Shown here piece after piece: positions 3,298-30,535 of a stretch of 64,000 nucleotides of DNA. The notes under the pieces are model-generated. The model made no database searches. It saw only the letters and a list, made by a program, of their open reading frames with translations, and was not told the origin of the DNA. Both the position numbers and the translations under genes were made by a program. The DNA is from Myxococcota bacterium (lineage in GTDB: Bacteria > Myxococcota_A > Polyangia > Polyangiales > Sandaracinaceae), in assembly GCA_036149055.1 (NCBI GenBank), contig JAYZQJ010000074.1, positions 22,454 to 86,453 of the forward strand. The letters run 5' to 3'. Numbering within the stretch: position 1 is the stretch's first letter; each line of letters opens with the position of its first letter.

Positions 3298-4140
3298 CTA
3301 CAACCCGAAGGCGAGCAGGGTACAGGTCTGCCCGACCGCGTCGGCGGGCCGGGTGTTCGGGATCTCCACCCGGTCGAGCTGGGTGGGCGCGCTCCCCGGG
3401 AAGACGACGTGCACGCGCGCGGAGCCGTGGGCGGGCACCCGCACCGGCGTCACCCAGGCGTCCGCGCCCGGCAGGCTGACCGGGCGGAGCGCGCGGCCGT
3501 CTCGGTCGGCGAAGGTCGCGGCGCCGATCGGGCCGAGCTGGAGGGTGCGGTCGGCGGGGTTCTCGAACACGAGCCAGACGCGTCGCCCGCCGTCGGGCAG
3601 CTGGCGCGGCACCGGGGCCACCGGCTCCTCGCCGTCCACCCGCACCGTCGCGCCCTCGCAGATGTCGCTGGCCCGCGCCGGCGGCAGCCCGGGCGGCGCG
3701 CTCGGCGGCGAGGAGGGAGGAGAGCGCATCCCCTGGGCCAGCTGCTCGAGCAGCTCTCGCATGCCCTCGCCGATCCCGCGCATCGCCTCGCCCAGATCGG
3801 CGCCCGGCAGCGCGCACTCGGCGATCACCGCGTCGCCCTCCCGCGGCGCGCCGGTGCCCGGGAGCAGCACCAGGGCCGGCTCGCCCCCCGCCGCCGTCGC
3901 CAGCGCGCACGCGTCCTGCCGGAGGGTCACCTGGTGGTCGCTCGAGATCGACAGCTCCACGTCGACCTGCCCCTCGATGACGGTGACGCCCTCGACCTGG
4001 CCGACGCGCACGCCGGAGACCATCACCGGCGAGCCCTCGCCGAGGCCCGCGCCCTGGCTGATCCGCGCGTGGTGGGTGTCGTCGCAGCCGACGCACATCG
4101 ACGCGGCCAGCGCGATCGCGAGCGAGACTCGAAGCTTCAC
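3298..4140 (-). CDS. MlaD/MCE-domain lipoprotein
   Basis: Signal peptide ending CVGC; MCE motif AGLGEGSPVMVSGVRVGQV. Confidence 0.75.
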   Translation of the reverse strand: MKLRVSLAIALAASMCVGCDDTHHARISQGAGLGEGSPVMVSGVRVGQVEGVTVIEGQVDVELSISSDHQVTLRQDACALATAAGGEPALVLLPGTGAPREGDAVIAECALPGADLGEAMRGIGEGMRELLEQLAQGMRSPPSSPPSAPPGLPPARASDICEGATVRVDGEEPVAPVPRQLPDGGRRVWLVFENPADRTLQLGPIGAATFADRDGRALRPVSLPGADAWVTPVRVPAHGSARVHVVFPGSAPTQLDRVEIPNTRPADAVGQTCTLLAFGL

Positions 4141-4220
4141 GCCGCCAGTACACCGCAACCGTCCGCTCTGTTCCAGCCGGTAGAGGGCGGGGCGGCGAGC
4201 GGCGCGGTAGGCTCCCCGCC

Positions 4221-5387
4221 ATGCCGAGATTCCCGAACACCGCGTCCAGCGCGGGCAGCCTCAGCGACCGCGTGTTCAGCCGCCTCGCGGCGCGCGCCCG
4301 GCAGCACGACGGCCCCCTCTACCCGCTGCACGTGGGCGACACCTGGATGGAGCCGCTCGAGTCGGCGCGCGCGGAGGCCCAGCGCACCGAGGCGCATCCT
4401 CGCTTGCACAACTACGCGCCGGTCCAGGGAGAGCTCGCCCTCCTCGAGGCGATCGAGGCGCACCTGCAGCGCCGCGGCGAGTGCCTGGTGGACCGCGACT
4501 GCGTGCAGGTCACCAGCGGCGCGACGGCCGGGCTCAGCGTGGTGGCCGAGGCGCTCCTCGACCCCGGCGACGAGGTCCTCCTGCCCGCGCCGTTCTGGCC
4601 GCTGATCCGCGGCATCATCCGCAAGCGCGGCGCGGCCGCGGTGGAGGTGCCCTTCTTCGACCGCCTCGAGGATCCGGCGTGGGACGCGGAGGCGGCCCTC
4701 GAGGCGGCGGTGACCGAGAAGACCGCCGCGATCTACCTCAACACCCCCCACAACCCGACCGGGCGCATCCTCTCGGACGCGGAGATCGCGGCGGTCGCGA
4801 AGGTGGCCGAGCGTCACGATCTCTGGATCTGGTCGGACGAGGTCTACGAGGAGCTCTACTTCGGGGCGTTCCCGCCGAAGCCGGTGTGGGCGCGCGCCGA
4901 CTACCAGACGCGCTGCGTGGCCGTGCACTCGATGTCGAAGGCCTACGGGCTGGCCGGCGCCCGGGTCGGCTGGGCCCACGGGCCGCACGAGGCGATGAAG
5001 GCGATCCGCGGCGTGCAGACCTTCTCGACCTACTGCGCGCCGCGGCCGATGCAGCTCGGCGCGGCCAACGCCCTGCGGGAGGGCGGCGCGTGGCTGGAGC
5101 AGGCGCGCCGGAGCTACGAGGAGGCCGCCGAGCGCACCGCGCGCACCCTCGGACTGCGCAAGCCCGACGGCGGCACCTTCGTCTTCTTCGACGTCTCGGC
5201 CCGCCGCCGGGAGGGAGAGGACACCCTCGGCCTGCTCGAGCGCTGCCTCGACGCGGGCGTGCTCCTGACGCCCGGCGCCGCCTCCGGGGAGGCCTACGAG
5301 AGCTGGGTCCGCCTGTGCTTCACCAGCGTGCGCCCGGAGGAGCTCCAGGAGGCGCTGGATCGGATCGCGCCGATCGTCGGCGCCTGA
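4221..5387 (+). CDS. PLP-dependent aminotransferase class I/II
   Basis: NTPHNPTG, SDEVYE, SMSKAYGLAGARVG motifs. Confidence 0.92.
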   Translation: MPRFPNTASSAGSLSDRVFSRLAARARQHDGPLYPLHVGDTWMEPLESARAEAQRTEAHPRLHNYAPVQGELALLEAIEAHLQRRGECLVDRDCVQVTSGATAGLSVVAEALLDPGDEVLLPAPFWPLIRGIIRKRGAAAVEVPFFDRLEDPAWDAEAALEAAVTEKTAAIYLNTPHNPTGRILSDAEIAAVAKVAERHDLWIWSDEVYEELYFGAFPPKPVWARADYQTRCVAVHSMSKAYGLAGARVGWAHGPHEAMKAIRGVQTFSTYCAPRPMQLGAANALREGGAWLEQARRSYEEAAERTARTLGLRKPDGGTFVFFDVSARRREGEDTLGLLERCLDAGVLLTPGAASGEAYESWVRLCFTSVRPEELQEALDRIAPIVGA

Positions 5388-5806: not shown

Positions 5807-5888
5807 CGAGCCTCATCGCTCGTAGAGCATTCTCACAGACTTCCATCGCCAGCACGGCGATTGCAGCCGACCCGCTCGGGGGAGACGC

Positions 5889-18392: not shown

Positions 18393-20096
18393 CTACGTGT
18401 CCATCGCCGCGCGGATCGCGGCGCCGAGCGCGCGCGGGTCGCCGGGGGCGATCTCGGTGACGCCCTCGAGGCCACGCAGGCCGCAGGCGGGCGAGGCGAT
18501 CACCGGGACGCCGCGACCGAGCGCGCGCAGGAGCGGCGACGGATCCCGGGGGACCCAGGCGGGCGCGACCACGACCGCGGCGCCGTCGAGCGGATCGGCG
18601 CCCGGCGCTCGCACCGGACGGCCCCAGTCGAAGCCGCCCTCGAGGTCGCGGCCGCCCACGATCAGCGGCGAAGGCAGCCCGCGCGCCGCGTCCCGGAGGG
18701 CGTGCGCGCCCTCGCGCCCGACCACCGGCCCGAGGAACGCGATCGCGTCGCCGCGGCGAGCGGGCGCGCCTCGAGGCACGCGCCACGCCAGCTTCACCGC
18801 CCGCGGCCCGAAGGCGTCGGCGATCGCGGCGTGGGGCGTGATCACGCGCCGAGCCCGGGCGAGCGCGACCTCCTCGTCGGCGACGAGCCCGGCCGGGGCG
18901 CGGAAGTCGGCGAGGGTCGGGCTCTCGGGGTGCCGGCGCGCGGCCTCGTCGAGGCGGGCCTGGAGGAGCCGCAGGGGCCAGCGACGCATCACCACGTCGA
19001 AGGTGCGGCCGCCGAGCGCGCCCTCTCGGTGGAGGTGCGGCAGGAGGTGCTGGTGCACCACGAGGTGGGTGTCCTCGGGCCCCAGGCGCGCGGCCATCCA
19101 GCCGGCCAGCCGGGCGTCGTGCGCGAGCAGGGCCCGCTGACGGGCGGCGCCCTGACTGCCGAGCCGACGGCTCTCGAGGGCGCGGCGCGCGACGAGCGCG
19201 AGCGCCTGATCGACACGCGAGAAGCCCGCCGTCGTCCAGGCGTAGCGGGGCCGCCGCCAGCGCTGTCCGTCGCAGGGGATCAGCAGCCGGTCCCCCGGGC
19301 GACGCGCGCCGGAGAGCCAGTCGTCGATCTCCGGCGTCACGCCGTCGAGCAGGAAGGCCGTCCGTCCGACCGGCGCGGCGAGCTCCGGCGCTCTCGAGAC
19401 GCAGCCGGTGCGGGCGCAGCGGTCGCAGCTCCCGGTGGGCTCCGGTCGCCGCGCCAGCGAGACCCGCGTCGGCGCCGCGCCGCGCCCCCGCAGCCGCACC
19501 TCGAGGTGGGTCGCGTCGAGCGCCACCTCCACCCCGAACGGCGCCGGCGCGGTGAAGCGCAGGTCGACGTAGCGCCAGAAGACGGTGGCGTCGCGGCCGC
19601 GCTCGGCGAGCGATCCCGGCACCACGACCGAGTGGGCGTGCCGCTCCACGATCTCGAAGCCGGCCTCGAGCGCGGCGTCGTAGAGGGCGTTCGAGAGCTG
19701 GCAGAGGCCGCCGCCGACCGAGGGCACGAGGCACCCCTCCCGGACCTCGCGCCCGAGCGCGTACCCGCCGCGCCGGGTGGGCCGGCCGACGTGGCGCCAG
19801 AAGCTGAAGATCTCGCCGGCCTCGAACCGCCGCCCGTGCAGCGCGCGCGCCGCGACCCGGAGGTTCTGCACCTTCCCCGCCTCGAGCCGCCGCTCGGCCG
19901 CGGGCTCGGCTGAGCGGGACCAGAGCGGGGTGCGCGAGCGCCCGGCCACCGGGAGATGGTCGATCCCGCCGCGCCGGCCGAGCGGGGTGGGCGCGCGGAG
20001 CTCCGCGGCCGCGCGGATGAGCTGATGACGCGCCGCGCGCGCTTCGAACCAGGCGCGCGACAGCTGCTGCCGCGCCCACGAGCCCTCGCGCTCCAC
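18393..20096 (-). CDS. VanW-domain protein with degenerate glycosyltransferase-like C-terminus
   Basis: GKVQNLR, FSFW..VG, GGGLCQLSNALY, ERHAHS, GRDATVFW.YVDLRF; C-terminal LRALGRGVPVIASPACG. Confidence 0.85.
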   Translation of the reverse strand: MEREGSWARQQLSRAWFEARAARHQLIRAAAELRAPTPLGRRGGIDHLPVAGRSRTPLWSRSAEPAAERRLEAGKVQNLRVAARALHGRRFEAGEIFSFWRHVGRPTRRGGYALGREVREGCLVPSVGGGLCQLSNALYDAALEAGFEIVERHAHSVVVPGSLAERGRDATVFWRYVDLRFTAPAPFGVEVALDATHLEVRLRGRGAAPTRVSLARRPEPTGSCDRCARTGCVSRAPELAAPVGRTAFLLDGVTPEIDDWLSGARRPGDRLLIPCDGQRWRRPRYAWTTAGFSRVDQALALVARRALESRRLGSQGAARQRALLAHDARLAGWMAARLGPEDTHLVVHQHLLPHLHREGALGGRTFDVVMRRWPLRLLQARLDEAARRHPESPTLADFRAPAGLVADEEVALARARRVITPHAAIADAFGPRAVKLAWRVPRGAPARRGDAIAFLGPVVGREGAHALRDAARGLPSPLIVGGRDLEGGFDWGRPVRAPGADPLDGAAVVVAPAWVPRDPSPLLRALGRGVPVIASPACGLRGLEGVTEIAPGDPRALGAAIRAAMDT

Positions 20097-20153
20097 GTCG
20101 GGTCATACGCGCCGGGCCCCCGCCATTCTTCCCCGGGGACGCGGCCGCGGCGA

Positions 20154-20223
20154 CAGGCCGTCAGGGAATCGAACCCTGCGCGGCGGGGGTTGGAAGCCCG
20201 CCTGTGCGCACAGCACCCGGCCT
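20154..20223 (-). tRNA. Irregular tRNA-Trp(CCA)-like gene with miniature D-arm
   Basis: Minus strand: acceptor AGGCCG/CGGCCT with G73; T arm CAGGG-TTCGATT-CCCTG; anticodon loop TT-CCA-AC; 5-nt variable region; D arm CTGT-GCGC-ACAG; no encoded CCA. Confidence 0.7.
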
Positions 20224-20273
20224 ATGTGGATTGTTCCGGACGGAATCGTCCGTTTGATCGCGCGTGCGATCGA

Positions 20274-20367
20274 TCGGGGTGACAGGACTCGAACCTGCAA
20301 TGCCCGAAGGCTCCCGGGCTACAACCGGGTGGGGGTACCAGCTCGTACCAGCTCCCCCTTCACCCCG
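20274..20367 (-). tRNA. Irregular tRNA-Tyr(GTA)-like gene, long variable arm, expanded D-loop
   Basis: Acceptor CGGGGTG/CACCCCG with A73; D stem GGGGG/CCCCC; anticodon arm CCCGG-TTGTAGC-CCGGG; variable arm GCC-TTCG-GGC; T arm GCAGG-TTCGAGT-CCTGT. Confidence 0.8.
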
Positions 20368-20408
20368 CTCTCTCCGCCGTGCGGGGGCGGCGACCGGGCG
20401 GGTGACGG

Positions 20409-20443
20409 AAAAGAAAAACCGCCCGGCCTGGAGGCCTGGGCGG
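20409..20443 (-). terminator. Intrinsic terminator, probably an attenuator, upstream of the tRNA-like genes
   Basis: Minus strand CCGCCC-A-GGCC-TCCA-GGCC-GGGCGG followed by TTTTTCTTTT. Confidence 0.85.
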
Positions 20444-20471
20444 CGATCGATCACGACGCGTACGCGACGGA

Positions 20472-20540
20472 TCAGGCCGACACCGGACCTCCGGTCGGAA
20501 TGCGCCAGACGCGCCAGAGTCGATAGGTGTGACGGCTCAT
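20472..20540 (-). CDS. Putative leader peptide MSRHTYRLWRVWRIPTGGPVSA (22 aa)
   Basis: GGAGG 4 nt before ATG; stops about 30 nt before the terminator; atypical codons TAT, CGA, ATT, GGA, GGT; two TGG. Confidence 0.65.
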   Translation of the reverse strand: MSRHTYRLWRVWRIPTGGPVSA

Positions 20541-20549
20541 GATGCCTCC

Positions 20550-20578
20550 GTCTTACGTCGCCTTCGCGCCCCTGTCAA
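20550..20578 (-). promoter_or_regulatory. Sigma70-like promoter
   Basis: TTGACA (20578-20573), 17-bp spacer, TAAGAC (20555-20550). The -35 overlaps the methyltransferase stop codon. Confidence 0.55.
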
Positions 20579-21726: not shown

Positions 21727-23733
21727 ATGGATCCGCTCTGCCCGCGCTCGGTCGTCGATACGGTTCGCACGGAGCAGACGGACCTGCCCCTGGACGTCGT
21801 GGAGGGGACCTACCCGTCGGATCTGCGCGGGCACCTCTACATGGTCTCGCCGGCGCACACCTTCGACGCCGACCCGGCCGCGCGCCGCACGACGCTGATG
21901 GTCGGCGATGGGCTCGTGACCCGCTTCGACCTCGAGAACGGGCCGACGCTCACGAGCCGGCTCGCGAAGACCTTCGACTACGTCGCCGACGAGCTGACGC
22001 ACACCGATCCGGACCTGCGCGCCTTCCGGTTCGAGAACGCCGGGCTGGTCCGCATCAGCCTGCTCGGCACGCGGGACTTCGCGAACACCGCGTTCGTGCC
22101 GATGAAGATCGGGAGCGAGCCCACGCGGCTGGTGCTCACCTACGACGCCGGCCGGCCGGTCGAGATCGATCCGGTGACCCTCGAGGTCGTCACCCCGGTG
22201 GGCGCGCGCGACGACTGGCGCCCCGAGGCGCTGCCCGACCAGGTCTTCCCCACCGTGCTGAGCCCGGCGCACCCCGCCTACGACCGCGCGACCGGCGAGC
22301 TGTTCACGCTCAACTACGGCCGCGGCATCGCCAACTTCGCGCTCACCGTCCCCATCGTCTACCTGCTGAGCAAGCTGCCCCGCTGGGCGCAGCACGCCTT
22401 CCACCAGGTCGCCACCCTGCTCGGCGTCGAGCAGGCGTACCGCTGGCTGCTCAAGCATTTCGAGCGCCTCACCACGCGGGTCGATCGCTGCCTCGAGCGC
22501 TTCCAGGACCGGTGCCTGCCGTTCTTGCCCGACACCTTCACCGACGTGGTGCGGTGGGACGGCAGCGGCGCCTTCGAGCGGTGGCGAATGGTCCTTCCGA
22601 ACGGGCGCGAGGTCTCGATCGCGCAGTCGGTGCACCAGATCGCGGTCACGGCGGAGCACGTCGTCGTGCTCGAGACCGGCTTCAAGATCGGCATGCAGTC
22701 GGCCTTCAACGACCCGTTCACGCCCGACGGCTTCGACATGCTGCTGCGCGCGATGCTGACCAAGCCGCAGCTCCCCTACACCGTGTTCTACGTGCTGAAG
22801 CGCGCCGACCTGCGGCCCGACGCCCCGCGCGGCGACGACGGCGTGCGGCGGGTGCCCTGCCGCCGCGTGCAGATCCCCGTCGAGGCCGACCACTTCCTCG
22901 CCGACTACGACGACTCGGGCGGCCTGATCCTGCACGTCGCCCACGCCCCGGCCACCGATCTCGCGGAGTGGATCCGCCCCTACGACCGCTCGCACTACGA
23001 CGGCGGGGAGATCGACGACGCGCTGCACGGGATGCTGGCGGTCGGCGCGATGGACGTGGGCCGCTTCGGTCGCTACCGGATCGACGGCGACACCGGCCGG
23101 GTGCTCGAGTCGGACGTGCTCGCGGACGACGAGCTGGGCTGGGCGATCGCGCTCTACGCCGGCCAGCAGCTCAACACCGAGGACGCGCTGCCGGATCGCA
23201 TCGAGAACCTCTGGTGGTGCACCGAGGGCGTCTTCCCGGATCTGCTGACCCGCTTCGTCTACGACCTCTACGAGCGCTACCCACACCGGCTGACCCCGCT
23301 GTCCGAGATGGCGAAGCTGGCCGAGGGCGGCCGGCCCTCGGGGGTGGTGCGCCTCGACACGCGCACGCTGACCATCGCCGACCGCTTCCCCCTGCCGAAG
23401 GGCGTGATGGCCGGCTCGCTCCAGCTCGTCCCCAAGCCGAACGCGACCTCGGATCTCGACGCCTACCTCGTGGGCACGATGTACACCGACACGCGCACCG
23501 AGCTCTGGGTGCTGGACGCGGGGGACCTCGCGGCCGGGCCCGTCTGCAAGCTCGCCTCACCGAGCTGGCGCACCGGCTTCTCGCTCCACACCGCCTGGCT
23601 CCCGACCCTGCAGCCCCGCACGTCGAGCTACGTCGTCCGCGCCGAAGACGACCTCCGCCGACAGGTCGAGGCGCTCGGAAACCCGGCGCTGACCGATCGC
23701 TTCGCTCAGGACCTCTACCCGCGATTTCCCTGA
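21727..23733 (+). CDS. Carotenoid oxygenase (RPE65/CCD) family protein
   Basis: VEGTYPSDLRG, GDGLV.RFD, ANTAFV, PAHPAYD, SVHQIAVT, C-terminal GPVCKL..GFSLHTAW. Confidence 0.85.
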   Translation: MDPLCPRSVVDTVRTEQTDLPLDVVEGTYPSDLRGHLYMVSPAHTFDADPAARRTTLMVGDGLVTRFDLENGPTLTSRLAKTFDYVADELTHTDPDLRAFRFENAGLVRISLLGTRDFANTAFVPMKIGSEPTRLVLTYDAGRPVEIDPVTLEVVTPVGARDDWRPEALPDQVFPTVLSPAHPAYDRATGELFTLNYGRGIANFALTVPIVYLLSKLPRWAQHAFHQVATLLGVEQAYRWLLKHFERLTTRVDRCLERFQDRCLPFLPDTFTDVVRWDGSGAFERWRMVLPNGREVSIAQSVHQIAVTAEHVVVLETGFKIGMQSAFNDPFTPDGFDMLLRAMLTKPQLPYTVFYVLKRADLRPDAPRGDDGVRRVPCRRVQIPVEADHFLADYDDSGGLILHVAHAPATDLAEWIRPYDRSHYDGGEIDDALHGMLAVGAMDVGRFGRYRIDGDTGRVLESDVLADDELGWAIALYAGQQLNTEDALPDRIENLWWCTEGVFPDLLTRFVYDLYERYPHRLTPLSEMAKLAEGGRPSGVVRLDTRTLTIADRFPLPKGVMAGSLQLVPKPNATSDLDAYLVGTMYTDTRTELWVLDAGDLAAGPVCKLASPSWRTGFSLHTAWLPTLQPRTSSYVVRAEDDLRRQVEALGNPALTDRFAQDLYPRFP

Positions 23734-23819
23734 CCGCTCCCATCTGGGGACTGTGTCGAACCGGCTCGAGCGGATATGTGGAGCGGGTCGCTTTCTCCTG
23801 GGGGGGTGGAGCGCGCCCC

Positions 23820-26705
23820 GTGTCCGAACCCGATCGCACCGCCTATCGCGCACACGTCCCCCTCCCGCCGGGCTGGCCGCCCGTGCTCGAGGGTCTGGGC
23901 GCGCGCGAGGCGAGCGGAGACGCGCCCGACCTGCTGTTCTGCGACGCGGCCAGCCTCGCGGGCGTCACCGCGGCCCTCGCCTCCACGCCCCGGCCGTCGT
24001 GGCCGCTGATCGCGCTGGTGGACGACGGGCTGCCGACCGCTCGGCTCGCCGCGCTCCTCGCCGCGGGCGCCGACGAGCACCTCCCGCGCGACCTCCCGGA
24101 CGCCGCGCTCGAGCGCCGGCTGATGGTGCTGCTCGCCTGCGCCCGCAAGCGCCGGGAGGTGAACCTCGCCGCCGCGTTGACCGGGATCGAGACGCTCTTC
24201 CAGGACATCGGCGACGTCTTCGGCGACATCGTCTTCGTCGTGAACGCCGACATGTCCCAGACGCTCTACGTCAGCCCCGGGCTCGAGCGCATGGTCGGGA
24301 TCCCGCGGGCCGTCGCCTACACCGACGCGATGGCGTACTTCGCCCGGGTCCACCCCGAGGACCGCGAGGCGTTGATGGGGCTGTCCACCGCCACCGCGCC
24401 CATCGAGCACCGGGTGGCCGGCGCCGACGGGCGCTATCGATGGGTGGAGACCCGGGTCGAGGCCGCGCGCGACGCGGACGGCACGCCGCTGCGATGGATC
24501 GGCGTGACCAGCGACGTCGGCCGGCGCAAGCGCGCCGAGGAGGACGCGAGCGCGCTCGAGGGCCTGCTCGACGGCGCGACGCTCGCGCTCGCGACCCTCC
24601 TGAAGGCGGGCGACGCGGAGGCGGCGATGCCGTCGGTGCTCGAGACGGTGGGGCGCGCGACCGACGCCCACCGCGTCTACACCGCGGTGCACGGCGTGAG
24701 CGACGAGGGCAGGCCGACGATCCGCTTCTCCCACGAGTGGCACGCCGAAGGGATCCCGCCGATCGACGACCCGGCGCTCTTCACCGAGCGGGAGATCGCC
24801 GAGGGCACCTCGCCGGTGATCGCCAAGCTGACGGAAGGGCGCACCCTCTCCGTGGTCACCGAGCAGATGAGCCCGTCGATGCGCGAGCGGATCGCGTCGA
24901 CCGGCGCGAGGGCGGTGCTGATGGTGCCGATCGTGGTGCGCGGCACCTGCCGGGGTCACATCGGCTTCGTCGACTGCGAGCGGGCGCGCGCCTGGTCGAC
25001 CCCGATGCGGCGCATCCTGCAGCTCACCGCCGCCGCCATCGGCACGGTCGCGCTGCGCGAGCAGGCCGAGCAGGAGGTCGCCACCCAGGGCGCGCGGCTC
25101 CGCGCGCTCTTCGAGGCGACCAACCCGGTGGCCTCGGTGCAGGCGCAGCTCGACGCGCTGCTCGAGACGGCGGTCACCGCCTTCCACATGGAGAGCGGCG
25201 TCATCCTGAAGCTCGACGCCGACGCGCGGCGGTGCGAGACGGTGCACGCCCACCCAGCCGGCGGCTGGCTGCAGCCCGGGAACGTGGCCGAGGCGCCCGA
25301 CGAGATGCTGAAGGTGGTCCGCGACCGGCGCGCGCGCCTCGCGGACGAGCCGTCGGAGGGCGTGTGCGAGTACGGCCGCGAGCGCGCCGTGCGCGCCACG
25401 ATGACCGTCCCGATCCACGTCCGCGAGGAGCCGTGGGGCGTGCTGGCGCTGCTCCGCCGCTCCCCGCGGCCTCAGCCGTCGAACGAGGCCGACCGCGACT
25501 CCCTCGAGCTGCTCGGCCGGCTGGTCGGGCTGCTCCTCGAGCGCGAGGAGTGGGAGGCGGAGCGGCGCGCGCTCGACCGCCGCATGCAGGAGGCGCAGCG
25601 GCTGGAGAGCCTCGGCGTGCTCGCCGGCGGCGTCGCGCACGACTTCAACAACCTGCTGATGGCGATCCTCGGCAACGCCGAGGTCGCCAAGCTCGACCTG
25701 CCGCCGGGGCACGCGGCGCGCGAGTCCCTCTCTCACATCGCGCTCGCGTCGCAGCGGGCCGCGGAGCTGACGCAGCAGATCCTGGCCTACGCGGGCAAGG
25801 CGCGGACGGAGCGCGAGGCGGTCGACGTCGGGCAGGTGGTGGCGGAGATGGGGGAGCTGCTCAACGCGGCCTTGCCCAAGAACGCGACCCTGCGCATCGC
25901 CGAGTCGGGCGGGGTGCCGCCGATCGAGGCGGATCCGGCGCAGCTCCGGCAGGTGCTCCTGAACCTGCTCACCAACGCGTCCGAGGCCCTCGGCGGCGCG
26001 CCGGGCGAGATCACCCTGTCGGTCAGCGAGACCGACGCGGCGCCGGCCGGGCGCATCGGCGCCGAGGCCCTCGACGCGGCGCGCTGGGTCTGCGTGGAGG
26101 TGCGCGACACCGGCCGCGGCATGACGCCCGAGACCCTCGAGCGCGCGCTCGACCCGTTCTACTCGACCCGCGAGCAGGGGCGCGGCCTCGGGCTGGCGGT
26201 GGTGACCGGCGTGGTCCGCGGTCACGGCGCGGTGCTCGATATCGACAGCGCCCCCGGCGAGGGGACGCGCGTCCGCATCTACTGGCCGGTGGCGAGCGCG
26301 ACGACCGCGGCCGCGGCGCCGGTCCCTCCGCCGGTGGACGGAGCGCTGCGAGGGCAGCGGGTGCTGGTGGTCGACGACGAGCCGCTGGTCCTCCGCGCGG
26401 TCGAGTCCCTGCTCAGCCGGGTGGGCGCGCGGGTGCGGGTCGCGCACGACGGCGACGAGGCGCTGAGCGCGTTCGAGGCCGAGGGGCCGTTCGAGATGGT
26501 CATCCTCGACCTGACCATGCCGCGACAGCACGGCTCGGAGGTGCACGCCAAGCTGCGCGCGCGCCACGCCGCGCTCCCCATCGTGATCATGAGCGGCTAC
26601 CCGGAGGACGGCCTCGCGACCGATCCGTACACCGCGTTCCTGCAGAAGCCCTTCCGCCCGCCGGAGCTCATGGAACGCGTGGAGTCGCTGCTCGTCCGAG
26701 GGTAG
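23820..26705 (+). CDS. Hybrid sensor histidine kinase (PAS-GAF-GAF-HisKA-HATPase-REC)
   Basis: VHPEDR PAS; LAGGVAHDFNNLL; NLLTNA; DTGRGM; GLGL; VVDDE..LDLTMP..LQKPF. Confidence 0.92.
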   Translation: MSEPDRTAYRAHVPLPPGWPPVLEGLGAREASGDAPDLLFCDAASLAGVTAALASTPRPSWPLIALVDDGLPTARLAALLAAGADEHLPRDLPDAALERRLMVLLACARKRREVNLAAALTGIETLFQDIGDVFGDIVFVVNADMSQTLYVSPGLERMVGIPRAVAYTDAMAYFARVHPEDREALMGLSTATAPIEHRVAGADGRYRWVETRVEAARDADGTPLRWIGVTSDVGRRKRAEEDASALEGLLDGATLALATLLKAGDAEAAMPSVLETVGRATDAHRVYTAVHGVSDEGRPTIRFSHEWHAEGIPPIDDPALFTEREIAEGTSPVIAKLTEGRTLSVVTEQMSPSMRERIASTGARAVLMVPIVVRGTCRGHIGFVDCERARAWSTPMRRILQLTAAAIGTVALREQAEQEVATQGARLRALFEATNPVASVQAQLDALLETAVTAFHMESGVILKLDADARRCETVHAHPAGGWLQPGNVAEAPDEMLKVVRDRRARLADEPSEGVCEYGRERAVRATMTVPIHVREEPWGVLALLRRSPRPQPSNEADRDSLELLGRLVGLLLEREEWEAERRALDRRMQEAQRLESLGVLAGGVAHDFNNLLMAILGNAEVAKLDLPPGHAARESLSHIALASQRAAELTQQILAYAGKARTEREAVDVGQVVAEMGELLNAALPKNATLRIAESGGVPPIEADPAQLRQVLLNLLTNASEALGGAPGEITLSVSETDAAPAGRIGAEALDAARWVCVEVRDTGRGMTPETLERALDPFYSTREQGRGLGLAVVTGVVRGHGAVLDIDSAPGEGTRVRIYWPVASATTAAAAPVPPPVDGALRGQRVLVVDDEPLVLRAVESLLSRVGARVRVAHDGDEALSAFEAEGPFEMVILDLTMPRQHGSEVHAKLRARHAALPIVIMSGYPEDGLATDPYTAFLQKPFRPPELMERVESLLVRG

Positions 26706-26726
26706 AGTCGCGCCGGGAGGTCCCTG

Positions 26727-27269
26727 ATGAGGTTCACGCTGGCGCTCACCATCCTGGCGCTCTCGGGCTGTGGCGCTCCGGCCGACGAGGAGGCCGCAGT
26801 CACCGAGGAGACGGTCACCACCGGCGACGAGGCGCCCGAAGGCGAGCTCCCCGGGCCTCCGATGGCGTGGGAGGAGATGGACCACGACGCCCAGGCGCGC
26901 TGGATGATGACCGAGGTGGTGCCGCGCATGGAGCAGCGCTTCCAGGCCTACGACGGCGAGCGCTACGCGAGCTTCGGGTGCGCGACCTGTCACGGGCCCA
27001 ACCCGCAGGAGGTCCAGTTCGAGATGCCGTCGCGCGCGCTCCCGGCCCTCCCCGCCACCGGGACGCCCGAGCAGCATCAGATGGTGCGCGAGTACCCGGA
27101 GATGGTCCGCTTCATGTTCAACGAAGTGCTGCCGACGATGCAGACGCTGGTCGGCGGCGCCGACTTCGACGAGGAGACCGGCGAGGGGTTCAGCTGCTAC
27201 TCCTGCCACCCGCACGCCGGCGACGAAGGCACCACGCTCGTGCACCTCGAGGGCGAGCCGGCCGAGTGA
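26727..27269 (+). CDS. Diheme c-type cytochrome lipoprotein
   Basis: LSGC lipobox; CATCH and CYSCH. Confidence 0.8.
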   Translation: MRFTLALTILALSGCGAPADEEAAVTEETVTTGDEAPEGELPGPPMAWEEMDHDAQARWMMTEVVPRMEQRFQAYDGERYASFGCATCHGPNPQEVQFEMPSRALPALPATGTPEQHQMVREYPEMVRFMFNEVLPTMQTLVGGADFDEETGEGFSCYSCHPHAGDEGTTLVHLEGEPAE

Positions 27270-28168
27270 GCGAGCAGGAAGCGCCGATCACCCTGGATCA
27301 GATCCAGGTGTTCCTGTGCGTCGTCGAGGAGGGCAGCTTCTCGGGGGCGGCCAAGCGGCTGCGTCGCGTGCAGTCGGCCATCAGCTACTCGATCGCGAAC
27401 CTCGAGCGGCTCCTCGAGGTGGAGCTCTTCGATCGGTCCGGCCGGAAGCCGGTGCTGACCGACGCCGGGCGCGCGCTGGTGGCCGACGCCAAGGCGGTCG
27501 ACGAGCGGGTGGATCTCCTGCACGCGCGCGCCAAGAGCATCTCGTCCGGGGTGGAGGCGCGGCTCAGCCTCGCCGTCGACATGCTCTTCCCCTCGCAGCC
27601 GCTCCTCGACGGCCTGCGCGCGTTCAACGAGCGCTACCCGCTGGTCGACCTCCACCTCCGGGTCGAGGGGCTCGGCGCGGTGGTGCAGCTGGTCGACGAG
27701 GGCACCTGTCAGCTCGGCATCGCCGTCGACTTCGACACCTACCCTCGCTCGCTCACCGTGCGCCCGCTGTGCACCGTGCCCATGTCGCAGGTCTGCGCGC
27801 CCGACCACGCGCTCGCCCGGGTGGAGGGCCCGATCCCGGAGGACGTCCTGCGCCACGAGACCCAGCTCGTGGTGACCGACCGCAGCTCGCTGACCGAGGG
27901 CCGGGACCGCGGGGTCGTCTCCGAGCGCACCTGGCGCATCGCCGATCTGCACACCAAGCGCATGCTCCTGCTGAACGGCTTCGGCTGGGGCAACATGCCG
28001 GACCACGCCATCGCCAACGACCTCGAGGCGGGCCGCCTCGTCCGCATCCAGCCGGCGCACCGGGCCGAGGACGTCGACGTGCCGCTGAGCGCCATCGCGC
28101 GCACCGCCGATCCGCCGGGCCCCGCGGCGAGCTGGCTCCTCGACCAGCTCGCCGAGCGCTGCGCCTGA
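27266..28168 (+). CDS. LysR family transcriptional regulator
   Basis: TLDQIQVF..EEGSFSGAAKRLRRVQSAISYSIANLE..LFDR. Confidence 0.95.
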   Translation: MSEQEAPITLDQIQVFLCVVEEGSFSGAAKRLRRVQSAISYSIANLERLLEVELFDRSGRKPVLTDAGRALVADAKAVDERVDLLHARAKSISSGVEARLSLAVDMLFPSQPLLDGLRAFNERYPLVDLHLRVEGLGAVVQLVDEGTCQLGIAVDFDTYPRSLTVRPLCTVPMSQVCAPDHALARVEGPIPEDVLRHETQLVVTDRSSLTEGRDRGVVSERTWRIADLHTKRMLLLNGFGWGNMPDHAIANDLEAGRLVRIQPAHRAEDVDVPLSAIARTADPPGPAASWLLDQLAERCA

Positions 28169-28173
28169 GCCGC

Positions 28174-28596
28174 CTACCAGTCGACGGACTTCCGCGACTG
28201 CTTCCGCTCGCTGCGCTGCTTCTTGGCCTTGAGCCGACGCTCCTTGGCCCCGCGCGAGGGCCGGGTCTTCTTGCGCTTCTTCGGCGGGTGGAGCGCGCTC
28301 CGGATCAGCGCCGCGAGCTTCTCCCGCGCGTCCTCGAGGTTCCGGGACTGGTCGCGGGTGGCCTGGCTGGTGATCTGGATCCGGCCCTCCCTGTCGAGCC
28401 GGTTCGCGGCCAGGCGACGCAGCCGCCCCTTCACCTCGTCGCGGAGCGCGGTGGTGCCCTCGAGGTCGAAGCGCAGGTCGACCTTCGTCGCGACCTTGTT
28501 CACGTTCTGGCCGCCCGGGCCGGAGGAGGTCGCGGCGCTCCACGAGAGATCCGCGCTCGGGATCACCGTACGCTGACTGACGGGGAGATCGTCCAC
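28174..28596 (-). CDS. arfB: Alternative ribosome-rescue peptidyl-tRNA hydrolase
   Basis: SSGPGGQNVNKVATKVDLRFD; basic tail PKKRKKTRPS..ERRLKAKK. Confidence 0.95.
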   Translation of the reverse strand: MDDLPVSQRTVIPSADLSWSAATSSGPGGQNVNKVATKVDLRFDLEGTTALRDEVKGRLRRLAANRLDREGRIQITSQATRDQSRNLEDAREKLAALIRSALHPPKKRKKTRPSRGAKERRLKAKKQRSERKQSRKSVDW

Positions 28597-28606
28597 ACCG
28601 GCAGGA

Positions 28607-30535
28607 CTAGCGCCGCCCGAAGGCGCCGACCACCTCGATGTGGTCCTCGACCGTGCGCACGCTCGGAGCGATCGCGCCGAGCTCCACCCCGGACTCGAGC
28701 CCGAAGAGGCTGAAGACGGCGCTCGTCTGGAGGCTGGGGATGGGGAGCGTCGGCGCCCCCTCGTTCAGGGCGAAGCGCGCGGTGTGGTGCGCGAACGCCA
28801 CGAGGAAGGCGTACGCCCCGGGTCGGTCGCCGGGCGGGAGCGCGGGGTCACTCGTCCAGCGCAGCTCGGTGATCTCGACGTCGCCGAACTCCGGGTCCTC
28901 GCCCGCGCCGGCGGTCAGCGTCGCGCGCGCGGTCGCCCCGAAGCGCACCCGGGTGCCGTCGCCGTAGGGGCCGCCGGCCACCGTCATCGTCATGCCGCCG
29001 AGCTGCACCTCGACCTGGTCGCCGCCCACGCTCGAGGCGACCGGCGGCAGCGCCGAGCCCACCTGGATCATGTCCGGCGCGACGATCATGTCGGGGGCCA
29101 CGATCATGTCCGGCGCGACGATCATGTCCGGGGCCAGGATCATGTCCGGCGCGACGATCCCCTCGACGCCGCCGGCCCGCCAGAGCCCGTGCAGGGCGAA
29201 GTTCATGACCGCCTCGCTCACCCGGTTGCCGACCGGCATCTCGGTGTCGCTCGCCGCCCGGACGGTGGCGCCGATGGCGACGCCCAGGCTCCGGCGATCG
29301 ATCGGGGCGTCCTCCTCCGCGTGCCGGGTGCCGAGGTCGAAGACGACCCCGGCGGGGCTGGCCTCGACGCCGGTGAAGAAGCTCTCGAAGCTGAGGCTCG
29401 TCATCGCCCCGTCGAGCCCGGGCACCGGGACCGAGGCGCCGAGCGAGCGCACGTCGATGCTGGAGAGCAGGATGTCGAGGAAGCCCGACAAGCCGGTCGC
29501 GGTGAAGCTGGCGATGCTCTCGCGCAGCGAGTCCCCCGAGTCCCGGTCGATGTGGTCGGCGACGCCTCTCTCGACGATCGACCGGTAGCTGGACGGCAGC
29601 CCGGGGAAGCTCGAGGTGACCGGGCCGGTGCGCACGCTCCGGACCTCGCGCACCGTCGCCTCGAGCTCGCCGTCCTCGTCGACGCCGAGATCGAGGTCGA
29701 TCTCGAGCTCGATGAATTCGATGTCGATGTCGCCGGGCGTGGGGCCGAAGCTCCGGGGCAGGCCCGCGTCCACGATCTGCTCGCCCGAGACGTCGACCGA
29801 GAGCCGGATGCCCTCCACCCGGCCGAAGAAGCGGAAGCCGCCGTCGATCGGCGCGAGGGTCGAGGTGCTGGCGCCCAGCACCGACGTGTCCCGGAAGTCG
29901 ACCGAGCTGGCGAGCTCGCACGCGTCGTCGGCCCGGCGCTGGTCACACGAGCGCGTCTTGATGTCGACGGTCGGCGAGCTGAAGCGCATGTCGAGCAGGG
30001 ACTCGAGCGCCCCGCCCTGGAGCAGCGCGAGGAAGACGTCGTTCAGGCTCTGGATGGGCTCGGCGACCCCGTCGCCGTCGTCCACCGCCTCGGGGCCGAG
30101 GCGCATGGTGACCGAGCCCGGGAGCAGCTCCGCGTCGGGGTGGAAGCGCGGCGCGGCGAGGAAGGTGCAGAGCTCGGAGAACGTCCGGCCGTCGGTCGCC
30201 TCGAGCTCGACCTCGACGTGGTTCATGCCGTAGCGGGCGGCGACCGGGATCGTGACCAGCCCGAGCGCGTCGGGCTCGAGGTCGACCCCCTCGGCCGTGA
30301 CGCGGGCCGCGAGCGACGGGTCCCCGACCGCCACCACCAGGCCGACCTCCTCGCCCTCGGCCGCCACCGTCATGGCGCCGTGCTCGGGGTTCACGCAGCG
30401 CAGCGACAGCGCCCGCGGGGGGCCCGCGTCTCCGGCGCCGGCGTCCTCGGGCGCGTCCACGCCTCCGTCGGTCGCGCCCCCGCCATCACACGCGGCGAGC
30501 AGCAACATGGCGAGCGCAATCGAGCTTCGCGGCAT
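28607..30535 (-). CDS. Hypothetical lipoprotein with internal hexapeptide repeat
   Basis: LAAC lipobox, DGG/DAG linker, (V/L)APDMI x5. Confidence 0.75.
   Translation of the reverse strand: MPRSSIALAMLLLAACDGGGATDGGVDAPEDAGAGDAGPPRALSLRCVNPEHGAMTVAAEGEEVGLVVAVGDPSLAARVTAEGVDLEPDALGLVTIPVAARYGMNHVEVELEATDGRTFSELCTFLAAPRFHPDAELLPGSVTMRLGPEAVDDGDGVAEPIQSLNDVFLALLQGGALESLLDMRFSSPTVDIKTRSCDQRRADDACELASSVDFRDTSVLGASTSTLAPIDGGFRFFGRVEGIRLSVDVSGEQIVDAGLPRSFGPTPGDIDIEFIELEIDLDLGVDEDGELEATVREVRSVRTGPVTSSFPGLPSSYRSIVERGVADHIDRDSGDSLRESIASFTATGLSGFLDILLSSIDVRSLGASVPVPGLDGAMTSLSFESFFTGVEASPAGVVFDLGTRHAEEDAPIDRRSLGVAIGATVRAASDTEMPVGNRVSEAVMNFALHGLWRAGGVEGIVAPDMILAPDMIVAPDMIVAPDMIVAPDMIQVGSALPPVASSVGGDQVEVQLGGMTMTVAGGPYGDGTRVRFGATARATLTAGAGEDPEFGDVEITELRWTSDPALPPGDRPGAYAFLVAFAHHTARFALNEGAPTLPIPSLQTSAVFSLFGLESGVELGAIAPSVRTVEDHIEVVGAFGRR
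29066..29155. repeat. 18-bp coding tandem repeat x5
   Basis: GATCATGTCCGGCGCGAC-type units with synonymous variation. Confidence 0.9.

Follow-up and report, generated by a model that had tools for sequence, protein, structure and literature searches.

An attenuator-like leader precedes an accessory tRNA-Tyr with a flipped C1:G72 pair in a Myxococcota bacterium

The window, i.e., the whole 64,000-nt stretch of DNA analyzed here, lies on contig C74 of a Myxococcota genome (G000), the assembly of which comprises 289 contigs and 9.9 Mb at 96% completeness. Sequencing runs that contain the stretch are mostly marine. The minus strand of the window encodes an accessory tRNA (20274..20367) with a GUA anticodon and a variable arm, which carries C1:G72, A73, A8, G37, and a 5-bp D-stem according to folding, ARAGORN, Rfam and comparison with a genome of the same genus (G001). 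The cloverleaf (20367-20274) consists of a 7-bp acceptor stem, A8-A9, a D-stem of five G-C pairs, a variable arm with a 3-bp stem closed by a UUCG loop and a canonical T-arm; CCA is not gene-encoded. Its fold energy is -49.8 kcal/mol (z -3.3), and 0 of 200 shuffles are equally stable. ARAGORN calls a tRNA-Tyr(GTA) with a misplaced 5' end (20358). In the Rfam search of the whole window the gene found no match at the gathering threshold, and with an 801-nt stretch as query the tRNA family matched with 29.5 bits (cut-off 29). Above the gathering threshold tRNA alone matched, and Y RNA or any other Rfam family was therefore rejected. A sequence-only reading of the window had already described four paired stems, GUA with G37, a variable arm with a UUCG loop, C1:G72/A73, and A8, all of which we recover.

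While the tRNA itself was recognized in that reading, an attenuator-like leader ORF and terminator upstream and a tRNA-Trp-like gene downstream were overlooked. The unit, all on the minus strand, is ordered as promoter-like site, 22-codon leader ORF, terminator, tRNA-Tyr, and degenerate tRNA-Trp. The putative promoter (20550..20578) combines TTGACA (20578-20573), a 17-nt spacer, and TAAGAC (20555-20550), with the start site placed by sequence only; its -35 box overlaps the stop codon of an upstream D12-type methyltransferase gene. A stock sigma-70 promoter scan reports 0 sites at the cassette, the -10 box of which fits 3/6. The putative leader ORF (20472..20540) has 22 codons plus TGA, with UAU as codon 6 (20525-20523) and UGG as codons 9 and 12. 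Base pairing predicted between its 3' end and the terminator's 5' arm could form an antiterminator. The intrinsic terminator-like hairpin (20409..20444) folds with about -22 kcal/mol and is followed by a U tract; a stock terminator scan leaves it unreported because loops are limited to 8 nt. A custom scan for the promoter/short-ORF/terminator layout returned 2 units in G000, the cassette and a tRNA array on contig C148, and terminator hairpins of like type precede accessory tRNA units in relatives. Downstream of the tRNA-Tyr, ARAGORN and folding identify a degenerate tRNA-Trp(CCA)-like gene (20154..20223) with A1:U72 and G73, which lacks the D-loop GG and has mismatches at 7:66 and 31:39. The next positional neighbour is a VanW-domain ORF (18393..20096, minus strand; Pfam PF04294, E 1.6e-33), which is possibly read through from the cassette.

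Comparable units exist in relatives. In G001, the unit occupies the equivalent place and is likewise followed by the VanW ORF; in G018, it lies at a different site, next to another neighbour and with an extra tRNA-Ile. Counterparts of the tRNA-Trp come after the C1:G72 tRNA in both genomes, and the tRNA-Ile is intact in G018, a remnant in G001, and absent from G000. The leader UAU, the terminator and the tRNA-Trp determinants are retained in all three genomes. The tRNA-Tyr genes of G000 and G001 are identical at 79/84 bases (with the D-loop repeat set aside), compared to 73-77% identity in the flanking coding DNA. This difference and the maintained pairing of the acceptor stems argue that the accessory tRNA-Tyr is under constraint.

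Within the species, the locus varies in two ways. A 10-nt tandem duplication (20335..20354, minus strand) enlarges the D-loop from 8 to 18 nt. Strain alleles were read from contigs of 4 of 24 listed runs (X3, X8, X18, and X19). An unbroken contig of run X3, which stems from another study (depth 3.8), crosses the duplication with zero differences, whereas the 10 duplicated letters are missing in run X8; the G001 and G018 copies have no duplication either. The sequence-only reading had placed an exact 10-nt repeat at this position and considered it a strain-specific lesion or an assembly artefact. Position, length, and strain specificity hold, and an artefact is unlikely since the contig of the independent study spans the repeat; we therefore reject it. 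Furthermore, a 429-nt segment that comprises the whole cassette (20145..20573) is absent in some strains. The deletion joint 20144-20574 occurs in contigs of the RNA runs X18 and X19, and a minor contig of the DNA run X8 has a similar joint (20134-20574) with 12 other letters. Hence, the duplication is a real polymorphism and, because X18, X19 and the minor X8 contig lack all of it, the cassette is dispensable in the species. As both RNA runs hold the deletion allele, they say nothing on expression of the cassette. The duplication itself is ordinary, and the 18-nt D-loop is likely a mildly harmful product of slippage.

The accessory tRNA is not the ordinary tRNA-Tyr of the group, a possibility that would have undermined the earlier reading. 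The housekeeping tRNA-Tyr of relatives has G1:C72 and sits in a Thr-Tyr-Gly-Thr-tufB cluster in 5/5 genomes checked (G001, G003, G010, G018, and G019); G001 and G018 thus hold both this copy and an accessory C1:G72 tRNA-Tyr. ARAGORN and a pattern scan found two GUA tRNAs in G000, the one in the cassette and an odd one on contig C208, and the tufB-cluster tRNAs were not found in this assembly. We attribute the missing housekeeping copy to an assembly gap because G000 has one assembled tuf 5' end (after fusA) versus two 3' ends and because the normal copy is present in 5/5 relatives. That the cassette encodes the sole or housekeeping tRNA-Tyr is rejected on account of C1:G72, A8, the stand-alone cassette, and the position of the relatives' normal copy before tufB. 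The GUA anticodon, A73, and the long variable arm are shared with housekeeping bacterial tRNA-Tyr. As side observations, contig C221 (~3850-5060) encodes a divergent EF-Tu paralogue beyond the two standard tuf copies, and tgt is present in G000 (a link to queuosine was considered).

How widespread the flipped pair is can be estimated from a pattern search for GUA tRNAs with a variable arm that end in G72-A73. Among 401 genomes of the order, 6 matched, of which five contain tRNAs (G000, G001, G018, G172, and G190) and one is coding DNA. A sample of 401 genomes of the phylum, which partly overlaps the order set and does not include G018, G172, and G190, gave 5/401 matching rows; G000 and G001 alone are real and none was added. 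The other three phylum matches were rejected: one is a repeated 3' end of tRNA-Pro, one is an intron-bearing tRNA of eukaryote-like type, and one matched by chance. In L189 (G407 C814, ~2215-2295), a tRNA-Tyr that is eukaryote-like and contains an intron lies at the end of a contig from a bacterial assembly and is probably contamination.

We assembled a family of 48 atypical tRNA-Tyr loci after removal of housekeeping-type rows, false matches, and three near-copies; G137 and G182, both counted among the 48, may be variants of the housekeeping gene, and G387 and G023 count only in the denominators of genome scans. A73 is present in all 48, G1:C72 in 43 and C1:G72 in 5. Position 8 is A in 21 members and U in 6. 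Thus, A8 is present as the earlier reading stated, but it is nothing special given that only 6/48 members kept U8; A8 and the long D-stem are family traits. On a tree of 82 columns, in which positions 1, 72, and 73 were excluded and many forks remain open, C1:G72 requires three changes, and a single clade is rejected (p-AU 1.8e-10), suggesting that the flip arose at least three times. The acceptor stems of G018, G172, and G190 remain paired through base changes, and the stem of G172 equals that of G003 apart from the flip. By eye, variation at pair 2:71 is no rarer in the family than variation at 1:72. Many members head, or sit inside, long arrays in relatives (Tyr-Lys-Gln-Asn-Asp-Phe...) of up to 10 or more genes, whereas the cassette here holds two tRNA genes rather than a long tandem array. 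The cassette probably derives from the long spare-tRNA arrays of Polyangiales. When all genome contigs were scanned for the long-D-stem subtype, 39 loci emerged; 33 belong to Actinomycetota (mainly Lentzea, each with G1:C72), 2 come from this order, and 4 are of another kind. Loci L048-L086 (Lentzea, Actinophytocola, Nocardia sp., and MAGs) show a solitary atypical tRNA-Tyr with A8 or C8 and a long D-stem; roughly a third have a terminator and a UAU-bearing leader, the remainder a bare promoter.

The leader of the cassette contains a rare codon. In G000, UAU occurs 0.82 times per 1000 codons versus 14.4 for UAC (crude ORF set). UAU had been seen in several leaders before its enrichment test was set; for the test, leaders were defined by a codon-blind rule, i.e., as the longest ATG-initiated ORF that has no more than 90 codons and ends within 110 nt of the terminator. 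From 48 loci, 29 have a terminator and 26 of these a leader ORF. An in-frame UAU is found in 19/26 leaders versus 7.7 in base shuffles. With one leader per genus, the count is 13/20 (the 20 probably include two non-leaders) versus 4.3 expected from dinucleotide shuffles (0/5000). UAU ranks first of 61 codons (z 5.0, next codon 2.8) and, counted by frame in the one-per-genus set, occurs 14 times in frame, 0 times in +1, and 7 times in +2. UAC is not enriched across leaders, and neither is UGG (11 vs 10.8 expected), for which reason sensing of Trp was rejected. Leaders of arrays without detected Tyr contain UAU in 1/8 cases (Fisher p 0.03, with kin not independent and four of the eight homologous). 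Most leaders carry a single UAU at a variable position; in G001, the leader counterpart also has it at codon 6. Five leaders of Tyr units are without UAU, four of them with UAC, and an ATG-initiated leader is lacking in G190. G033 (which is among the 20) and G024, two units inspected afterwards, both begin with a Tyr gene and have an in-frame UAU. In Actinomycetota, a terminator is present at 12/33 loci, and 9/12 leaders contain UAU versus 2.0 expected (three lineages at most); the remaining three have a UAU-bearing short ORF in a different frame. Since custom scans found almost no leaders of this type before protein genes, the controls are limited to shuffles, other frames, and arrays without Tyr. 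These comparisons suggest that the regulatory codon of the leaders is cognate to the tRNA product.

In 26/28 folded leaders, the stop codon lies 22-44 nt ahead of the terminator arm and often overlaps the complement of this arm. Modeling a ribosome stalled at Tyr in full-length folds lowers the terminator probability from 1.00 to 0.04 or less in 9/26 leaders. In nascent G000 RNA, the predicted antiterminator probability is 0.95 with the ribosome stalled, 0.12 at the stop codon and 0.61 in shuffles, whereas in the full-length fold the terminator stays at 0.96 on stalling. G001 has no margin over shuffles (0.49 vs 0.51) and no full-length switch, and the mean margin is modest (0.81 vs 0.62). In G398 (L181 and L182), arrays are split by two to three successive leader/terminator units, and UAU occurs in the unit directly before tRNA-Tyr. 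Arrays without detected Tyr (L173, L175, L176, and C148 of G000) are preceded by leaders of a second family, which have UGG as codon 3 or 4. The C148 array (23469-29250, minus strand) is long, lies behind two leader/terminator units, and includes many degenerate tRNAs, an HNH-like ORF, a TROVE/Ro60-like ORF (recognized by eye), and short repeated non-tRNA RNAs between genes; Tyr is undetected in it, and its first leader has UAC and no UAU.

Next, we consider the enzymes that could charge the tRNA. G000 encodes one bacterial TyrRS with an S4 domain, one TrpRS, and one ProRS. Among solved structures, the TyrRS is nearest to the B. stearothermophilus enzyme, and its acceptor-contact region, if the residue roles are as we assume, looks ordinary. 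G001, G018, G172, and G190 each have two PF00579 genes, read as TyrRS and TrpRS, and the TyrRS proteins of G000, G001, and G018 are bacterial when read individually. No second TyrRS was found in the five C1:G72 genomes (incomplete assemblies, 82-100% complete) and no second ProRS in G000. The suggestion that the tRNA is orthogonal to the host TyrRS thus lacks a partner, with one bacterial-type TyrRS in G000 and a pair of PF00579 genes per genome in the remaining four. The TyrRS of G000 and G001 belongs to the B. stearothermophilus/E. coli-like subtype and that of G018 to the other bacterial subtype. Because of this difference, the flip does not track the enzyme, and co-adaptation of TyrRS is rejected. 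Four other family members (L039-L042, as opposed to L001 and L038 of G000 and G001) have the other subtype; a replacement of TyrRS by transfer in the genus of G000 and G001 is probable.

Taken together, we lean towards a back-up tRNA-Tyr that is switched on when ribosomes stall at UAU and receives tyrosine from a bacterial TyrRS tolerating C1:G72. Anatomy, family, distribution, polymorphism, and the codon bias of the leaders are observed, and we infer promoter use, leader translation, switching, processing, and tyrosine charging. Transcription would start just upstream of the leader ORF. A ribosome reaching the leader stop codon would mask the antiterminator strand, allowing the terminator to fold and keeping the tRNAs switched off, and slow decoding of UAU would open the attenuator and lead to production of the spare tRNA-Tyr, resulting in negative feedback. 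The sole bacterial-type TyrRS would charge the tRNA with tyrosine, probably less efficiently than the housekeeping copy. C1:G72 would be a tolerated flip that arose several times in a relaxed tRNA family, and the D-loop duplication a lesion that slippage recently caused in one strain lineage, within a losable cassette. As 43/48 relatives have G1:C72, the circuit presumably evolved for tyrosine-charged tRNAs, and tolerated charging by TyrRS is favoured because the C1:G72 copies are conserved and keep GUA, A73, and the variable arm. The tested bacterial Tyr determinants in a review table are A73, G34, and U35 only, so that pair 1-72 is omitted there (PMC9976931). Two bacterial-type organellar TyrRS ignore pair 1-72, where C1-G72 costs 1.9-fold (PMC6310243). 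The text of PMC9976931 and PMC1934993, in the portions available, attribute the barrier between bacteria and archaea to pair 1-72, and charging by the G000 TyrRS may therefore be poor.

A rival view takes the cassette for a decaying relic, in which a stranded piece of an array, weakened in charging by C1:G72, drifts to loss and yields a nearly functionless RNA. The whole-cassette deletion in X8, X18, and X19 and the duplication in other strains fit this view, as do the degenerate tRNA-Trp and the fate of the tRNA-Ile (intact in G018, a remnant in G001, and gone in G000). We regard it as unlikely, however, because the identity to G001 exceeds that of the coding flanks with differences that preserve the stems, because the leader UAU, terminator, and tRNA-Trp determinants are conserved in three genomes, and because three separate double changes preserve pair 1:72. 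Alternatively, the tRNA might be a deliberate mistranslator comparable to tRNA-ProX, a part of the pool being charged by the host ProRS via G72, A73, and G37, so that proline is inserted at Tyr codons upon UAU stalling, e.g., in tyrosine shortage. The acceptor stem indeed equals that of the host tRNA-Pro(UGG) in all 7 pairs and A73, G37 is found in 3/5 C1:G72 versus 2/43 G1:C72 copies (those three are kin), and E. coli ProRS charges a tRNA-ProN with U35, which mistranslates, according to the portion of PMC10404621 at hand. Yet G35 and G36 are absent, the variable arm is present, and the tRNA-ProX marks A33 and A34 as well as a ProRSx are missing beside the single ProRS of G000; moreover, the acceptor stems of G018, G172, and G190 match tRNA-Pro only at 1:72/73, and body and leader are common to the 43 G1:C72 relatives. 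Mistranslation, one of the options of the sequence-only reading, hence gains the matching acceptor stem and becomes our second choice there, but with a body shared by a family that is G1:C72 in 43/48 members and no second ProRS, we consider it very unlikely.

A further proposal sees the flip, A8, and the long D-stem as products of selection for evading or absorbing tRNA-targeting toxins of competitors, prey, or phages. It would account for the repeated flips and the family-wide loss of U8, the C148 array contains the HNH-like and TROVE/Ro60-like genes recognized by eye, cyanobacterial arrays help survival under translational stress (PMC8421152, available part), and it is compatible with a back-up tRNA-Tyr provided that the RNA is also charged. 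On the other hand, no toxin was identified, pair 2:71 is by eye at least as variable as 1:72, and C1-G72 gives no protection from AtaT in the part of PMC7595197 consulted, leaving escape from AtaT unsupported. The decoy suggested by the earlier reading found no positive support, and we judge this proposal highly improbable. Barely credible to us is an orthogonal tRNA with an archaeal-type TyrRS that escaped assembly or comes from a phage or plasmid. CPR bacteria do pair a C1-G72 tRNA with a variable arm with such an enzyme (PMC5370408, accessible text), and G000 is 96% complete in 289 contigs; still, each of the five C1:G72 genomes (82-100% complete) has two PF00579 genes, the TyrRS read in G000, G001, and G018 is bacterial, and the cassette has no adjacent synthetase. 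Finally, a bolder combination would have a UAU-sensing attenuator release a tRNA with a Tyr anticodon and a Pro acceptor, relieving stalled ribosomes by regulated Tyr-to-Pro mistranslation or by a toxin-proof tRNA, with the flip selected three times in myxobacteria while the synthetase stayed unchanged. We hold this to be quite unlikely.

Several known systems resemble parts of the cassette. Leader-peptide attenuators are known from trp, his, and pheST. The cassette shares with them a short ORF, a stop codon over a predicted antiterminator strand, an intrinsic terminator, and a codon cognate to the product, but here the product is the tRNA itself, there is usually one codon rather than a run, and UAU is preferred over the synonymous UAC. 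Other leader-type examples are the wblC uORF (PMC7157823) and bmrB (PMC4191407), each as far as the available text goes. The CPR tRNA-Tyr likewise has C1-G72, GUA, a long variable arm, and an origin from bacterial-type tRNA-Tyr (PMC5370408, accessible part; Mukai et al., 2017). In that text, it always goes with an archaeal/eukaryal-type TyrRS, none of which was found here, and in contrast to CPR the tRNA here supplements a normal G1:C72 tRNA-Tyr and follows an attenuator-like leader. L-arrays and the Anabaena trn operon consist of supernumerary, patchy tRNAs that are silent until translation is stressed (PMC8421152, available part), and homologues of our tRNA head such arrays. Similarly, the cassette is redundant to a housekeeping isodecoder, patchy, and dispensable, but it has two genes and what looks like codon-specific leader-peptide control as opposed to the repressor TrcR (PMC10272220, available part). 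The array dataset of PMC8421152 may list these loci; "Tyr" or "Myxo" gave no match in the main text. The tRNA-ProX group (ProA, ProN, and ProT of Streptomyces and Kitasatospora) combines C1:G72 and A73 with a non-proline anticodon and is not known to have a variable arm. According to the available part of the source, its marks are G21, A33, A34, and A15:A48, whereas the cassette tRNA has U33, G34, U35-A36, and a variable arm (PMC10404621). Furthermore, a full or truncated ProRSx gene adjoins tRNA-ProX, while the cassette neighbours are VanW and D12 methyltransferase genes, and the cassette tRNA clusters with accessory tRNA-Tyr on our tree (which holds no tRNA-Pro).

Pair 1-72 is the textbook barrier between the bacterial and archaeal tyrosine systems and the basis of orthogonal pairs in genetic code expansion. 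Natural repeated flips in which the variable arm is kept and an archaeal TyrRS is absent are a test of how strict this barrier is, since either the flip is accepted by the bacterial TyrRS or the amino acid on the tRNA is a different one. If the back-up reading is true, a rare Tyr codon in the leader would gate a spare tRNA-Tyr in both Myxococcota and Actinomycetota, a feedback loop acting on tRNA supply, and UAU gating would provide a specific trigger for tRNA arrays. Literature searches, which covered few subscription papers, found neither a C1:G72 tRNA-Tyr without an archaeal TyrRS nor leader-peptide attenuation of tRNA genes, and the accessible parts of PMC5389517, PMC7157823, PMC7595197, and PMC6337575 do not describe leader attenuation of tRNA genes or the flip. 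Already in print, in the parts available, are C1-G72 with a variable arm in CPR bacteria (PMC5370408) and stress-induced tRNA arrays (PMC8421152). Worth attention are the flip, which recurs in genomes where no matching synthetase was found, and the putative UAU-gated supply of a spare tRNA-Tyr.

Other unusual tRNA genes were noted along the way. The odd GUA tRNA-like gene of G000 (C208:24813-24883, minus strand; L015 ~5814-5884) has C1:G72, U73, and no variable arm, and directly precedes a 771-aa ORF without a Pfam match. On contig C194 (29532-29615, minus strand), a tRNA-Leu has the anticodon AAG instead of the usual GAG/UAG. In G033 (L183, C739, ~660-1150), a tRNA-Tyr and a tRNA-Lys contain related T-loop inserts of ~65-90 nt, one also being present in the D-arm of the Tyr gene; these are too short for group I introns. 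Repeats in gammaproteobacterial and Acidimicrobiia MAGs (L076, L077, and L080), which ARAGORN leaves uncalled, consist of a hairpin followed by a 5' end that resembles tRNA-Leu, an atypical body, and a T-arm.
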